Translations under genes and position numbers: made by a program
Shown here: positions 3,061 through 12,009 of the stretch, in pieces
Numbering within the stretch: the stretch's first letter is position 1
Layout of the letters: every line of letters starts with the position of its first letter
Source of the DNA: a bacterium
Lineage (GTDB): Bacteria; JADJOY01
Length of the DNA stretch: 20,000 bases
Assembly: GCA_046331705.1 (NCBI GenBank)
Contig: JAXLQJ010000017.1
Location: 112,439-132,438 of the forward strand
Direction: 5' to 3'
The notes under the pieces: generated by a model
Seen by the model: the letters and a program-made list of their open reading frames with translations, nothing else
What the model was told of the DNA's origin: nothing
The model's database searches: none

Positions 3061-4152
3061 ATGGACGCTCCACTCGCGGGCGTGGCCGCGCTGGCGGCGG
3101 CACTGGGCCTGGCGGCGGCGGGGATCCAGCGCGGCGCGATCCGCCGAGAGCGTGCGCTCGCCGCGCGGATCGACGAGCTCTCGCGCGAGCTCGCCTCGGC
3201 GCGCGACCAGCTGGCGGCGCGGCGCGCGGCGAGCGCCGAGTCGCAGGCCCTCGAGGAACGAGCGCGCGCGATCGACGCACGCAAGCTCGAGGTGGATCGA
3301 GCGATCGACGGCATCGCCCGCGCGCAGCGCCAGCTGGTGCAATCCGAGAAGCTCGCGTCCCTGGGCCGGATGGCGGCGGGCGTCGCGCACGAGTTCAACA
3401 ACCCCGCGCAGCATCTCATCATCAACCTGCCGTTCCTGCGCCGCGCCATCGATCGGCTGCGCCGCGTCCTCGACGTCGCGCTCGCGCTGCCGCCCGCCGA
3501 TGCGGCCGCCGCCGAGCGGCTCGCGAAGGCGATGGAGGACGCGAAGCTGGCGCGCACCAACGCGGACCTCGACGAGATCCTCGAGGGCCTCGAGGAGGGC
3601 GCGACCCGCATCGGCGAGCTGGTGCGCGACCTCACGACCTTCTCGCGCATGGACACCGGCGACCTCAAGCAGGTCGACGTCCACGAGGGCCTCGATGCCA
3701 CCATTCGGCTGCTCGGCTATCGCTTGAAGGACCGCATCGAGATCCATCGCGACTACCAGAAGCTGCCCTCCATCCGCTGTCACGCCGGACAGATCAACCA
3801 CGTCTTCATGAACCTGTTCGCGAACGCCGCGGACGCCATCTCGGGACGCGGCAACGTGTGGGTGAAGACCGAGCCCGTGGGCGGAAACCGGATCCGCGTC
3901 CGCATCAGCGACGACGGCTCGGGCATGAGCGCCGAGACCCTGGCCCGCGTCTTCGATCCGTTCTTCACCACCAAGGAGCCCGGGCGCGGAACCGGCCTGG
4001 GCCTTGCTACGAGCTACGACATCGTGACTCGACACGGCGGAAGCATCTCGGCACAAAGCGATCCCGGCATCGGCACGGTCTTCACCGTGGAGCTTCCGCT
4101 CGAGCCCGAGTTCGTGGAAAAGCCCGCGTCCGCGGGGAGATCCGGCGAATGA
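3061..4152 (+). CDS. Sensor histidine kinase (NtrB/HupT-like HisKA-HATPase) with one N-terminal hydrophobic segment and a coiled coil (363 aa)
   Basis: [25 protein letters not shown] (H box), NLFANAADA (N box), ISDDGSGM (G1), FDPFFTTK (F box), GTGLGL (G2). Confidence 0.93.
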
Positions 4153-5669
4153 GCGGCAAGGTCCTCTTGGTCGACGACGAGCGCCACATCCTGCTCGCGC
4201 TGCGGCGCGTGCTCGAGGAAGAGTGCGACTGTCTCATCGCCGGGAGTGCCGCCGAGGCGCTCGAGACGTTCGCGAGACAGGGCGACGAGATCGAGGTGGT
4301 GGTCGCCGACAACGTCATGCCGGAGATGCGCGGCGTCGAGCTGCTCGCCGAGGTCCGCAAGCGCTGGCCGCGCACGGTACGCATCCTGCTCACCGGCTAC
4401 TCGAGCAACGAAGCCGTGATGGACGCGATCAACCAGGGCCACGTGTTCAGCTACATCCGCAAGCCCGTCGAGGCGGACGACTTCCTCATCTACGTCCGCA
4501 ACGCGCTGAGCTTCCATCGCGCGCTCGTCGAGCAGGACCGGCTGAGCCGCGCGCTCGAGCTCTCGCGCGCCGAGCAGCAGGTCCAGTCGGTCCAGCTCAA
4601 GCGCCAGACCACGCCGCTGCGCGCGGCGTTTCCCGAGATCGTGGGCTCGAGCTCGGCGATGGAGTCGGTCCTCGAGATCGTGGAGGAGGTGGCCGCCACC
4701 CGGGCGCCGGTGCTCGTCGAAGGCGAGACCGGAACCGGCAAGGAAGTGCTGGCGCGGGCCATCCACCGGTTGAGCGGCCGCCAGCCGTTCGTGTCGCTCA
4801 ACTGCGCCGCGATCCCGGAGACGATCCTCGAGAGCGAGCTCTTCGGCCACGAGCGCGGCGCCTTCACCGGCGCGGTGCGAACGCAGATCGGCAAGTTCGA
4901 GGCGGCCCACGGAGGTACGATCTTCCTCGACGAGATCGGCGAGATGCCGCTCAACCTCCAAGCCAAGCTGCTGCGCGTGCTGCAGGAAGGCGAGGTCGTG
5001 CGGCTCGGCAACATCCACGGCCGCAAGGTCGACGTGCGGATCGTCGCCGCCACCAACCGCGACCTCAGGCGCATGACGGACGAGGGCACGTTCCGGCTGG
5101 ATCTCTACTTTCGCCTCAACGTCATCCGCATCCGCATCCCCACGCTGCGCGAGCGGCGCGCGGACGTGGCCCCGTTGATCCAGCACTTCCTGGAGAAGTT
5201 CTCGCGCGACCACGGCAAGTCCGTGACGGGAATCGCGCCGGATGCCCTCGAGCTGCTCTTGGCCCACCCCTACCCGGGCAACGTGCGCGAGCTCTCTAAC
5301 TGGATCGAGCGCGGTGTGCTCTTGAGTCGCGGGCCCGTGCTCACCGTCGACGCGTTGCCCTCCGAGGTCCGCGACGCAGCCCCCGCGCCCCCGGCGAGCG
5401 TCAGCCCAGCCTCCTCCGTCGGCTCCGCCACCGGGCTCACGGTGGGCGGGCCGTCGCGCCAGGAGGTCGTGGACCACGCCGAGAAGACCTACCTCGAGGA
5501 CGTGCTTCGCCAGACCGGCGGAAGCGTCGTGGAGGCGCTGCGGCGCACGCAGATCCCGCGCGCCACCTTCTACCGCAAGCTCGATCGCCTGGGGATCGAC
5601 CCCGCCGCCTTCCGACGTGGGAGCGCGAGCTCGGCGGGGCCCACGGGCACCGCTGGGGGTGCGCCATGA
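4149..5669 (+). CDS. NtrC-family sigma54-dependent response regulator (REC-AAA+-Fis HTH, 506 aa)
   Basis: REC VLLVDDE, VVADNVMP, LLTG, IRKP. Walker A GETGTGKE, ESELFGHERGAFTGA, Walker B IFLDEIGE, IVAATN, FRLDLYFRL, YPGNVREL. C-terminal HTH RATFYRKL. ATGA overlap with the kinase. Confidence 0.96.
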   Translation: MSGKVLLVDDERHILLALRRVLEEECDCLIAGSAAEALETFARQGDEIEVVVADNVMPEMRGVELLAEVRKRWPRTVRILLTGYSSNEAVMDAINQGHVFSYIRKPVEADDFLIYVRNALSFHRALVEQDRLSRALELSRAEQQVQSVQLKRQTTPLRAAFPEIVGSSSAMESVLEIVEEVAATRAPVLVEGETGTGKEVLARAIHRLSGRQPFVSLNCAAIPETILESELFGHERGAFTGAVRTQIGKFEAAHGGTIFLDEIGEMPLNLQAKLLRVLQEGEVVRLGNIHGRKVDVRIVAATNRDLRRMTDEGTFRLDLYFRLNVIRIRIPTLRERRADVAPLIQHFLEKFSRDHGKSVTGIAPDALELLLAHPYPGNVRELSNWIERGVLLSRGPVLTVDALPSEVRDAAPAPPASVSPASSVGSATGLTVGGPSRQEVVDHAEKTYLEDVLRQTGGSVVEALRRTQIPRATFYRKLDRLGIDPAAFRRGSASSAGPTGTAGGAP

Positions 5670-10271: not shown

Positions 10272-10278
10272 TCCGGGG

Positions 10279-12009
10279 CTACGGCCAGGGCCCGGACTTG
10301 GCGCCGTCGCTGTCGAGGGTGAGCGGCGGATCCTCGGAGGCCGGCGGACGCACGCCTGCGGCGCTGATCGTGTACTTGTCGCAGAGCCCGTCGTCGTCCG
10401 TGTCGGTGACCGTGATCGTGTACCAGTAGTCGCTACCGTCCAGCGCGACGCCGAGGTCGGGAAGCTGCGTGCCGGAGTCACTGTAGGTCTTGGATCCCGG
10501 GCAATTGCCCGAGCCGTCGTCGTACGAGAACGAGCCTCCCGAGAAGAGACGCTCGAGGCCGCTGGCGATGGCTTCGACGTTCCGCCGCGCCTGCGCGCGT
10601 GCGTCTGCGATCGGCAACCCCACCGGCGATCCCGGCAAGACGTCGCCATACCCGAGGCGAATCAAGAGGGGCCGCAGAAACACCCGCCAGCCCATGCCCG
10701 CGGAACCCACCGCCAGCAGCGTCAGCGCGAGCCACCAGGCCCAGCTGCTGGAGCGCGACGCACGTCCGCGCCCCGCGCCCGAACGATCCGAGGCGCTCGA
10801 GTCCCCGTCCTCGAACGGAAGCGGCGACGGCGGCGTGAGGTGGTTCGGCGCGATTCGCTGCGGCGGCGCTCCCGCGTGCGAAGCGCTCTCGGGTGGCGGC
10901 ACGAACGGCGTGCGCTGCTCGAAGAACCGCGACTTGCCCCGCAGATCGCTGGCGATCTGGCGGGCGTCCGCGTACCGATCGTCCCGATCCTTCGCGAGCG
11001 CCTTGAGGATCACGCGCTCGATGCGCTCGGGCAGGTCGGGGCGGTGAGCACGCGGCGGGTCCGGCTGCTCGTTCACGTGCATGAGCGCCGTCTCGAGCGG
11101 CGTCGCTCCCTGGAACGGCACGTCGCCGGTGAACATCTGGTAGAGGACGACGCCGAACGAGTAGAGATCGGCGCGGTGGTCGAGCGGGACGCCACGCTTC
11201 GGGTTCGCTTGCTCCGGCGAGATGTAGACCGGCGTGCCGACCATCTGCCCGCTGGCGCTGAGCTGGGTGGTGTCGATCGCCTTGGCGAGACCGAAATCGA
11301 GGATCTTGACGACCCAGCGGGACTCGGGAGCGTCGGGGTCGAGCAACACCGAGCCGAAGCGCGTCGCGGGATCGACCAGAAAGATGTTGTGCGGCTTGAC
11401 GTCGCGATGGATGACACCGCTCGCGTGGGCGTACGCGAGCCCTTGGGCCACCTGGCAGGCGACGTCGATGCCATCGGCGATCGAGAGCGGACCGTGCACC
11501 TGGATCTGGGTCTTGAGGTCGGTCCCCTCCAGGAACTCCATCGACAGGTAGAACACGTCGCCCACGTTTCCGAGGTCGAAGACCTTCAGGATGTTCGGGT
11601 GCGACAGACGTCGTGCGACGCGGGTCTCGTGCTTGAAGCGCTCGACGATGGTCTCGTCGGCGGGGATCAGGCTCGGGTGGATGATCTTGAGCGCGACGGT
11701 CTCGTCCAGGTCGCGATCGTGGGCGCGGTACACGACCCCCATGCCGCCGCGGCCGATCTTCTCGACGATGTCGTAGCGCCCCGCCACCAAGGCCCCGGGC
11801 CGAAAGAGCGAGGCCCCGAAGTCGGCGCCTGCTTCGGTGGGATACGTGGCCCCCGAACCGGACCCCGACCCGGCCGCCGCCGCCGCAGCGGCCGCCGGGT
11901 CGCGCGTCGTCACCGCGTTGCCCGCCGCCACCGGCGCGAGCGCCATGCCGCAGCACGTGCAGACGGCGGCAGCGCCATCGAGCGCGGTATGACAGCGGGG
12001 ACAATCCAT
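10279..12009 (-). CDS. Membrane Hanks-type Ser/Thr protein kinase with N-terminal zinc ribbon and C-terminal pilin-like extracytoplasmic domain (576 aa)
   Basis: CPRC..CTCCG, GRGGMG, VALK, HRDVKPHN, DFG, GTPVYISPEQ, DLYSFG, LAKDRDDRY. TM segment WAWWLALTLLAVGSAGMGW. Confidence 0.93.
   Translation of the reverse strand: MDCPRCHTALDGAAAVCTCCGMALAPVAAGNAVTTRDPAAAAAAAAGSGSGSGATYPTEAGADFGASLFRPGALVAGRYDIVEKIGRGGMGVVYRAHDRDLDETVALKIIHPSLIPADETIVERFKHETRVARRLSHPNILKVFDLGNVGDVFYLSMEFLEGTDLKTQIQVHGPLSIADGIDVACQVAQGLAYAHASGVIHRDVKPHNIFLVDPATRFGSVLLDPDAPESRWVVKILDFGLAKAIDTTQLSASGQMVGTPVYISPEQANPKRGVPLDHRADLYSFGVVLYQMFTGDVPFQGATPLETALMHVNEQPDPPRAHRPDLPERIERVILKALAKDRDDRYADARQIASDLRGKSRFFEQRTPFVPPPESASHAGAPPQRIAPNHLTPPSPLPFEDGDSSASDRSGAGRGRASRSSSWAWWLALTLLAVGSAGMGWRVFLRPLLIRLGYGDVLPGSPVGLPIADARAQARRNVEAIASGLERLFSGGSFSYDDGSGNCPGSKTYSDSGTQLPDLGVALDGSDYWYTITVTDTDDDGLCDKYTISAAGVRPPASEDPPLTLDSDGAKSGPWP

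Follow-up and report, generated by a model that had tools for sequence, protein, structure and literature searches.

A candidate lineage-restricted sigma54 regulatory locus with a degenerate activator and a truncated kinase in uncultured sludge bacteria

Introduction

Is a bacterial locus in which two signaling enzymes each lie near a degenerate counterpart a working regulatory system, a chance grouping of genes, or an island in decay? The question was raised by positions 3061 to 12009 of a 20,000-nucleotide (nt) stretch of DNA (the window) from a bacterium of GTDB lineage JADJOY01 (GenBank assembly GCA_046331705.1, contig JAXLQJ010000017.1, positions 112,439 to 132,438 of the forward strand). 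A reading made from the letters of this stretch alone (the sequence-only reading) placed an undescribed signaling island there, consisting of a histidine kinase (HK) gene coupled to an intact and a degenerate activator gene, a sigma54 promoter, an operon for three envelope proteins including a pseudokinase, and a convergent, active Ser/Thr kinase with a pilin-like domain. Pseudoenzymes are, to our knowledge, well studied in eukaryotic signaling and barely studied in bacteria. The follow-up analysis presented here indicates that the locus is, on balance, probably a lineage-restricted sigma54 regulatory module, and that both of its degenerate genes are maintained by purifying selection rather than decaying.

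Results

Activator operon and its degenerate paralog

Genes were called by third-position GC phase (GC3 frame analysis), because the window has ~70% G+C, and by Pfam matches. All gene coordinates of the sequence-only reading were borne out, and with them the layout between a dciA-like gene and alr. The order of elements was HK, NtrC-type activator, a dead activator paralog designated psEBP, sigma54 promoter, lipoprotein, pseudokinase with TPR-like and PEGA-like parts, secreted TPR/Ig protein, and convergent Hanks-type kinase. The HK/activator junction (4149 to 4152) and the activator/psEBP junction (5666 to 5669) were both 4-nt start/stop overlaps by coordinates, consistent with the coupled regulatory operon that had been proposed.

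The HK gene (3061 to 4152, plus strand) encoded a HATPase_c domain (2.6e-25) and a HisKA match of 23.8 bits, under the Pfam cut-off of 26.9. Alignment of ortholog N termini delimited an N-terminal hydrophobic anchor, a coiled coil, a DHp domain with the H-box AHEFNNP, and a CA domain, and the protein was without a sensor domain. Its top NCBIfam match was T2SS_HK (233 bits versus a cut-off of 450), covering the kinase core only. The second gene (4149 to 5669, plus strand) was annotated as an intact NtrC-type activator, with Pfam matches to Sigma54_activat (4.7e-70), Response_reg (3.1e-17), HTH_8 (1e-05), and AAA_lid_14. The motifs GETGTGK, GAFTGA, and LDE were retained, so that the protein combined the receiver (REC), the AAA+ domain with Walker A, Walker B, and GAFTGA, and the HTH_8 domain that define a bacterial enhancer-binding protein (bEBP).

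The third gene, psEBP (5666 to 6874, plus strand), was resolved by alignment of orthologs into a pseudo-receiver, a degenerate AAA+ domain, and a lid. The AAA+ profile was still detectable (Sigma54_activat, 42.1 bits versus a cut-off of 20.2, profile positions 5 to 113 of 168), as were Sigma54_activ_2 (2e-12) and AAA_lid_14 (2.9e-12). When eight orthologs were aligned with live activators, the same lesions were found in all eight: the Walker A lysine was replaced by arginine (GEPGSGR in the window copy), an ELHGAL-type sequence stood in place of GAFTGA, the Walker B DE read D followed by I or V, and six residues were deleted ahead of sensor I. The C-terminal Fis-type helix-turn-helix was missing, the protein ending 8 residues past the AAA+/lid match, versus 70 to 173 residues in the other full-span enhancer-binding protein (EBP)-like open reading frames (ORFs). 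The N terminus gave no Pfam match to Response_reg even at E values up to 10; it aligned to receivers, with the acceptor aspartate (D62) and the threonine retained and the DD pair and lysine lost. From these losses, psEBP is predicted to be unable to hydrolyze ATP, contact sigma54, or bind DNA.

Among 46 EBP-like ORFs in the genome of the window, psEBP was the sole full-span match without the Walker A lysine, GAFTGA, the Walker B DE, and the C-terminal tail. A search of 5.8 billion proteins recovered nine ortholog-level clusters at 56 to 99% identity, followed by generic activators at ≤36%. Elsewhere in the genome, one EBP-like gene (G000:C6:22751-25571) was spread over two ORFs that overlap but differ in frame, one coding for an N-terminal half with GAFTGA and the other for a C-terminal half, possibly reflecting a frameshift or a split gene.

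Sigma54 promoter and upstream elements

A sequence matching the sigma54 −24/−12 consensus (TGGCAT-N5-TTGCT; TGGCATgggcgTTGCT) was found by motif search at positions 7104 to 7119 on the plus strand, starting ~230 nt past the activator operon and ending 38 nt ahead of the lipoprotein ATG (7158). The pattern TGGCAY-N5-TTGCW had this single match in the window and none in any of 200 shuffled sequences. TGGCAY-N5-TTGCT lay upstream of the lipoprotein start in 6/6 genomes of the lineage (the genome of the window and five relatives, G001 to G005), in spacers that had otherwise diverged. The promoter that the sequence-only reading had placed after the activator operon was in this way upheld.

The strict sigma54 motif occurred at only six sites in the whole 8.17-Mb genome, each with an ORF start 33 to 87 nt downstream. 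The other five sites (G000:C1:251354 on the minus strand, C11:101398 on the plus strand, C31:52696 on the plus strand, C37:70230 on the minus strand, and C71:26890 on the plus strand) precede genes for an unknown protein of 662 amino acids (aa), a GlnB/K-like PII protein, two prepilins of type IV, and an unknown protein of 141 aa. PII proteins and prepilins are textbook sigma54 targets. Because all six sites precede ORF starts, these targets included, the motif was taken as predictive in this organism, which has one copy of rpoN. The sequence at 7104 to 7119 has the motif, position, and conservation of a sigma54-dependent promoter and is predicted to be one.

Alignment across the six genomes also revealed a conserved 18-mer (CGAACGTCGCGAATTGCA; 6949 to 6966, plus strand), which reads CGATCGTCGCGAATTGCA in G002 and lies 112 to 313 nt upstream of the −24 element. 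It was found with at most one substitution in 4/6 genomes, and in 5/6 when four substitutions were allowed. The 18-mer is a candidate enhancer, or upstream activating sequence, to which the activator may bind. Between it and the promoter, a further block (CAATTCGAGACAGTT; 7066 to 7080) was conserved in three genomes and recognizable in the others; it could be a site for a bending protein. In a metatranscriptome library, three small perfect contigs lay on the lipoprotein, pseudokinase, and secreted-protein genes; because such libraries can contain DNA, these were treated as a weak hint of expression only. A scan of positions 2500 to 12400 for sigma70 promoters and terminators was uninformative (no promoters; one terminator-like site versus 2.3 expected).

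The position of the promoter bears on the possibility that the genes are unrelated neighbors, with the activator operon acting on targets elsewhere, another activator driving the envelope operon, and the kinase serving a separate role, for example in pilus or cell wall function. The genome offers ample material for such an arrangement, with 46 EBP-like and at least 38 kinase-like ORFs; the region sits among the collinear housekeeping genes alr, mlaEFD, purH, and purD, and conservation of the 18-mer is imperfect. Against this, the promoter lies directly downstream of the activator operon in 6/6 genomes, and sigma54 activators often act on adjoining operons. A set of unrelated neighbors is accordingly judged unlikely.

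Envelope operon and the C-lobe pseudokinase

The first gene downstream of the promoter (7158 to 7637, plus strand) was predicted to encode a small lipoprotein. A G-C-[SA] motif followed a hydrophobic stretch, with the lipobox cysteine invariant in 6/6 orthologs, and lipidation is predicted. No Pfam or NCBIfam family was matched; the protein Atlas model had a beta-sandwich fold whose structural neighbors were generic and DUF2914-like (TM-score, 0.74 to 0.84). The lipoprotein and pseudokinase genes overlap by 4 nt (7634 to 7637), the overlap reading ATGA.

In the window, the pseudokinase gene is divided by an in-frame TAG. The first part (7634 to 8608, plus strand, with the TAG at 8609 to 8611) encoded a cytoplasmic kinase C-lobe, a transmembrane (TM) helix, and a linker rich in Pro, Ala, and Thr; the second (8612 to 9295, plus strand) encoded the periplasmic linker, a TPR-like repeat, and a PEGA-like beta domain. 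The Pkinase match of the first part reached 27.7 bits (cut-off, 31.7) and covered profile positions 174 to 260 of 263 only. BLAST alignment to kinases ran from the hinge onward, with HRD replaced by PGL and DFG by DVW; there was no N-lobe and no room for one, and the protein does not qualify as a Hanks-type kinase. A deliberately narrow profile recovered 38 kinase-like ORFs from the genome, and in no other did the match span the C-lobe alone. The second part matched TPR_14 (6.7e-4), and PEGA (PF08308) at 15.6 bits versus a cut-off of 20.8 (profile positions 2 to 68 of 71).

The periplasmic repeat resembled repeats that a full-length kinase paralog in this genome carries past its TM helix; on this likeness, the pseudokinase appears to be a receptor kinase from the same family without its N-lobe. 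The earlier claim that both signaling enzymes have degenerate counterparts nearby was therefore substantiated, by shared lesions in all eight psEBP orthologs and by a pseudokinase reduced to its C-lobe.

The third gene (9261 to 10271, plus strand; likely start, ATG at 9288) was predicted to encode a secreted protein, in which a signal peptide is followed by a TPR-like helical repeat, an Ig/filamin-like sandwich, and a disordered tail. The AlphaFold2 model had a mean pLDDT (per-residue model confidence) of 55.6, with residues 40 to 100 and 160 to 260 at ~62 to 85 in 10-residue blocks. Residues 161 to 260 aligned to Ig-like sandwiches (VIA-align Z up to 10.8) and residues 36 to 129 to TPR or helical repeats (Z of ~8.3 to 8.9); both ordered folds are generic. 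No Pfam or NCBIfam family was matched, and the protein Atlas returned only "hypothetical" or TPR clusters. The proposed envelope operon stood in its gene content and its ATGA coupling; the single pseudokinase-TM-TPR-PEGA protein it was said to contain is split by the TAG in this copy, and its PEGA match is below threshold.

The TAG is private to this assembly rather than a trait of the gene family. All six genomes carry the pseudokinase gene, and the TAG was seen only in that of the window; in 4/4 relatives with contigs covering the region, a single ORF of 526 to 555 aa spans the gene. A sibling protein from another assembly (P0039, 99% identical) is 553 aa long and has lysine at the TAG position. 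In three DNA runs from three studies, all contigs read A rather than T at position 8609 (AAG, lysine), at a depth of 5.6 to 7, and none carried T. The TAG must be a nonsense allele of this strain or else an error in the consensus. Read-through or recoding was considered and rejected: the TAG stands alone, its place is taken by a sense codon in relatives, and no other sign of recoding was seen.

Distribution, synteny, and selection

The GTDB order, class, and phylum to which this genome belongs hold the same six species-level genomes, which make up two genera of a single family. These genomes are ~5.5 to 8.4 Mb in size and represent an uncultured sludge lineage; the stretch itself was present in activated-sludge and related runs from 16 studies. 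A scan of genome contigs with the pseudokinase alignment recovered the same five relatives only and none outside the lineage, and a scan of metagenome contigs yielded a single true ortholog (L058, at 87% identity). At the remaining 79 metagenome loci kept, only the kinase C-lobe was matched, at ~26 to 53% identity, and these look like ordinary kinases.

Synteny was assessed by tblastn of the window proteins against the five relatives. In G002, G003, and G005, the full order from HK to the convergent kinase was found, followed by alr and mlaE. The contig of G001 begins within the activator gene and is complete downstream, and that of G004 preserves the order from HK to the pseudokinase, where the 5.3-kb contig ends. 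The kinase was nearby and convergent in all four relatives with contigs reaching it. The genes are thus co-conserved, as the sequence-only reading had expected, and the weight of this result is small: conserved order is no proof of a functional unit because the housekeeping flanks are equally collinear.

The 7-nt spacing between the kinase gene and the secreted-protein gene, which that reading had noted, applies to the window only. The two stops are separated by 7 nt here (10272 to 10278), and the gap is not kept in relatives, being ~50 nt in G003 and ~230 nt in G005 (from the ends of tblastn matches) and ~1.2 kb in G001 and G002, where an extra gene lies within it. The extra gene encodes 365 aa on the operon strand (L015 9060-10157 in G002, and the same place in L016 of G001) and had no Pfam or NCBIfam family; its FVGCSFTQGW stretch is reminiscent of SGNH hydrolases.

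Ratios of nonsynonymous to synonymous substitution rates (dN/dS) were estimated by the pairwise Nei-Gojobori method (NG86) against the two closest genomes. Values were 0.21 to 0.24 for psEBP, 0.14 to 0.18 for the pseudokinase, and 0.24 to 0.26 for its TPR/PEGA part, versus 0.08 to 0.09 for the live activator, 0.10 to 0.13 for the live kinase, and 0.15 to 0.16 for alr.

These ratios speak to the possibility that the locus is a decaying island, in which the degenerate activator and the truncated kinase are pseudogenes and the TAG and frame breaks in G003 are further lesions. The sequence-only reading had itself named neutral evolution and varied lesions in relatives as the signs of decay. The in-frame TAG of the window copy fits such a history, as do three frame breaks in G003, in the activator, psEBP, and secreted-protein genes (e.g., L013 13869-13893, 12654-12662, and 9115-9122), in a genome whose rpoC is unbroken. 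However, the breaks in G003 are assembly-wide. On 319 kb of the same contig (L013, G003:C4), in a survey whose list lacked the three breaks of the locus itself, 19 frame changes were found in 16 of 124 orthologous genes, a rate of ~0.11 per kb of coding sequence, versus 3 in ~11.5 kb at the locus. The breaks were therefore rejected as a sign of decay. The TAG, for its part, is absent from the sibling protein and from 3/3 DNA runs. Since the lesions of the degenerate genes are identical across orthologs, in open frames of constant length, and their dN/dS of 0.14 to 0.24 is well under 1, both genes are maintained by purifying selection, and a decaying island is highly improbable.

Convergent kinase and its pilin-like ectodomain

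The gene on the opposite strand (10279 to 12009, minus strand) encoded an active Hanks-type kinase comprising a zinc ribbon, a kinase domain (Pkinase, 1.7e-48, 165.8 bits), a TM helix, and a pilin-like ectodomain. The glycine loop GRGGMG and the VALK, HRDVKPHN, DFG, and SPE motifs were invariant in five orthologs, giving the full set of Hanks features. The N-terminal Cys4 zinc ribbon and two cysteines in the ectodomain were likewise invariant in these orthologs.

For the pilin module (TM helix plus ectodomain, residues 417 to 576; 10282 to 10761, minus strand), a profile search was decisive. Against 1.84 billion representative proteins, its profile matched the ortholog cluster (1e-87) and then proteins of 102 to 173 aa (E values of 6e-26 to 3e-12). 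Five of these small proteins exceeded the Pfam cut-off for N_methyl and share a CPG...YxYT...DGDxLC...GPW signature. Only one kinase cluster with this pilin ectodomain was found among the representatives. The genome of the window encodes two free pilins whose identity to the kinase ectodomain is 46% and 44%; they are its closest paralogs. Given these profile matches and the identity to the organism's own free pilins, the ectodomain shares homology with true type IV prepilins, which substantiates the pilin-domain kinase of the sequence-only reading.

Other searches gave fainter signals. No prepilin leader or methylation motif (G/FTLIE) was found in the kinase module, whose TM helix reads WAWWLALTLLAVG, and there was no Pfam N_methyl match. 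The best Pfam signal in the ectodomain was a sub-threshold match to the minor-pilin family ComP_DUS (E = 0.079). The model of the module has the order of an alpha1-C helix and a four-stranded antiparallel sheet at a mean pLDDT of 62. The top Foldseek matches were minor pilins, the best being PilE (4noa; E = 0.061, probability 0.99), with none at ≤1e-3.

Both free pilins lie in type IV pilus-type clusters. In one (L138, G000:C11:24000-43999, positions 7123-20000), a row of genes encodes the pilin, a prepilin peptidase, a HAMP histidine kinase, a sigma54 activator, five further N-methyl proteins, and a PilX_N protein; in the other (L139, G000:C4:148000-167999, positions 8949-16152), the second pilin adjoins a HAMP kinase, and a sigma54 activator is encoded a short way off, within a few genes. 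The same pilin domain also occurs in a 692-aa protein (P0051, residues 583 to 691), after an N-methyl-like motif (residues 556 to 575) and ~550 preceding residues without a Pfam family.

These findings are relevant to the circuit proposed in the sequence-only reading, in which the activator pair induces an envelope complex and the pseudokinase binds or modulates the pilin kinase in contact or surface sensing, and to a tie between such a circuit and type IV pili. Several observations are consistent with it. The kinase is convergent and nearby in all four relatives with contigs that extend to it, its ectodomain shares homology with pilins that the organism encodes in type IV pilus clusters, and sigma54 is predicted to drive pilin genes in this genome. 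Moreover, the pseudokinase retains the C-lobe helices that kinases use for docking, and pilin-core/kinase fusions of cyanobacteria were proposed as regulators, according to excerpts of a recent study (PMC13759059, 2026).

Adjacency, however, is uninformative where the flanks are collinear too; G001 and G002 have an extra gene between the pseudokinase operon and the kinase; and the window holds no pilus-machinery gene. The pseudokinase C-lobe is also no closer to the convergent kinase than to other paralogs. Co-folding of kinase residues 70 to 365 with pseudokinase residues 1 to 200, based on small alignments, scored 0.29 against a mark of 0.32, a value that speaks neither for binding nor against it. 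The full circuit is regarded as unlikely. The pilin-like ectodomain is the one feature that points to contact or surface sensing.

A more elaborate hybrid His-Asp/Hanks circuit would have the dead, cotranslated psEBP set sigma54 gain while the C-lobe pseudokinase docks the pilin kinase, so that the state of the pilin pool or of the pilus machine at the envelope feeds into sigma54 transcription; this is considered quite unlikely. Of the circuit as first proposed, only the link from the activator to the envelope genes is supported, and functional coupling of the activator/envelope half to the kinase half is hypothetical.

Flanking genes

The left flank carries genes for a REC-GGDEF-EAL protein (31 to 1803), a TetR regulator (1889 to 2593, minus strand), and DciA (2578 to 2928, minus strand; Pfam, 1.3e-13). 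To the right, alr, mlaE, mlaF, mlaD, purH, purD, and a Uma2-family gene follow. Positions 13426 to 19497 and 19519 to 19998, from mlaE/F/D through purH and purD to the Uma2-family gene, are ordinary flank, as is the REC-GGDEF-EAL gene. The MlaD-like gene had unusually high third-position GC (0.93 to 0.99).

Discussion

Proposed mechanism

The features of the locus are best accommodated by a sigma54 module of the following kind. The membrane-anchored, sensor-less HK would phosphorylate the activator, which would bind the 18-mer upstream, open the sigma54 promoter, and turn on the envelope operon; this chain of events is rated as reasonably probable. psEBP may enter mixed oligomers with the live activator through its AAA+ domain and set, probably dampening, its output, a tentative proposal that falls a little short of even chances. 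The envelope proteins would most likely assemble into a scaffold across the periplasm, and the cytoplasmic C-lobe would offer a live Hanks-type kinase a surface on which to dock. The pilin-ectodomain kinase is the obvious candidate partner, and that it is the actual one seems rather doubtful.

Several observations weigh against this interpretation. The genome encodes ~44 other activators, any of which could act at the promoter at 7104 to 7119, and the 18-mer differs at four positions in G004 and could not be located in G005. Identity between psEBP and the live activator is 26 to 31%, not above that between psEBP and other paralogs. TetR, DciA, alr, and mlaE are as collinear as the genes of the locus, and all relatives belong to one family. 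The dN/dS estimates were obtained with NG86 under strong GC3 bias and climb to 0.37 to 0.52 in more distant pairs, because the bias compresses dS. Finally, the pseudokinase copy of the window is interrupted by the in-frame TAG (8609 to 8611) in its Pro/Ala/Thr-rich linker.

The locus brings together two clean natural cases of bacterial pseudoenzymes. The first case is an activator paralog apparently without ATPase activity, sigma54 contact, and DNA binding that is nevertheless selected beside a live partner; the second is a membrane-anchored kinase of which only the C-lobe is left. Should psEBP enter the ring of the live activator, AAA+ activators would have in it a natural subunit of a dominant-negative or gain-setting type, an idea testable in Escherichia coli. 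Function must be tested heterologously, because the lineage is uncultured and represented by six species-level sludge genomes. The pilin-ectodomain kinase, in turn, extends an architecture first noted in cyanobacteria beyond them.

Comparison with known systems

Systems of the PilS/PilR and NtrB/NtrC type likewise pair an HK with a REC-AAA+-HTH activator beside a −24/−12 promoter, and the same genome has HK/sigma54-activator pairs beside its pilin genes. The locus differs from these systems in that NCBIfam equivalog scores (AtoC, NtrC, and PEP-CTERM regulator) were all below their cut-offs, the HK is without a sensor domain, and a dead paralog is co-encoded.

Activator partners of the FleT, HrpR/HrpS, and RedR type retain a working ATPase and GAFTGA and co-activate. 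Unlike those pairs, psEBP has lost the Walker A lysine, the Walker B glutamate, GAFTGA, and six residues ahead of sensor I, and keeps a pseudo-receiver; with these losses, it cannot co-activate in the way those partners do. The likeness lies elsewhere: in the available excerpts, FleQ/FleT of Cereibacter (Rhodobacter) sphaeroides, HrpR/HrpS, and RedR1/RedR2 are, as here, paired paralogous activator genes whose products are thought to form mixed oligomers, and FleT, like psEBP, is described without a DNA-binding domain. According to excerpts of PMC10084136 and PMC7175178, FleT is the one described bEBP without both the R and D domains and works with FleQ, and RedR1/RedR2 hetero-oligomers are active only when both partners are active, an inactive partner blocking the active one. 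An open-literature search for degenerate bEBPs turned up a single paper, concerning VfmH and of no relevance here.

The pseudokinase shares with the Hanks-type pseudokinase families ActPs1-3, GLW, CP1, DYD, and DLHK the properties, as given in the excerpted text, of being dead, conserved as a family, and probably a scaffold or regulator. Those seven families are defined there by VAIK, HRD, and DFG substitutions, indels being mentioned only as local, and none of the families in that text comes from Myxococcota-like lineages. Set against these partial descriptions, the protein described here stands apart in having no N-lobe, a membrane anchor, and periplasmic TPR and PEGA-like parts.

For the convergent kinase, the closest counterparts are the cyanobacterial fusions (e.g., Oscil6304_4885). 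In excerpts of PMC13759059, these have an N-terminal kinase followed by a pilin core of an alpha1-C helix and a four-stranded sheet, and they were proposed to be regulators rather than filament subunits. An N-terminal kinase and a predicted pilin core are common to both. The cyanobacterial proteins are described in those excerpts as being without the hydrophobic alpha1-N helix, whereas here a TM helix precedes the core, and the ectodomain is 44 to 46% identical to the organism's own free pilins.

A search of the open literature for a dead activator paralog of this kind, a C-lobe-only membrane pseudokinase, or the two together beside a pilin-ectodomain kinase returned no published case. The designation of the locus as undescribed is fair for the combination; published precedents exist for paired bEBPs and for fusions of a pilin core to a kinase. 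Each component belongs to a kind already known, namely, two-component sigma54 control, paired bEBPs, bacterial pseudokinases, and pilin-core kinases. What appears to be new, judging from their sequences, is a conserved activator paralog predicted to be dead in ATPase activity, sigma54 contact, and DNA binding, and a putative membrane pseudokinase consisting of a C-lobe only; the placement of both dead paralogs together beside a pilin-ectodomain kinase also appears to be new.

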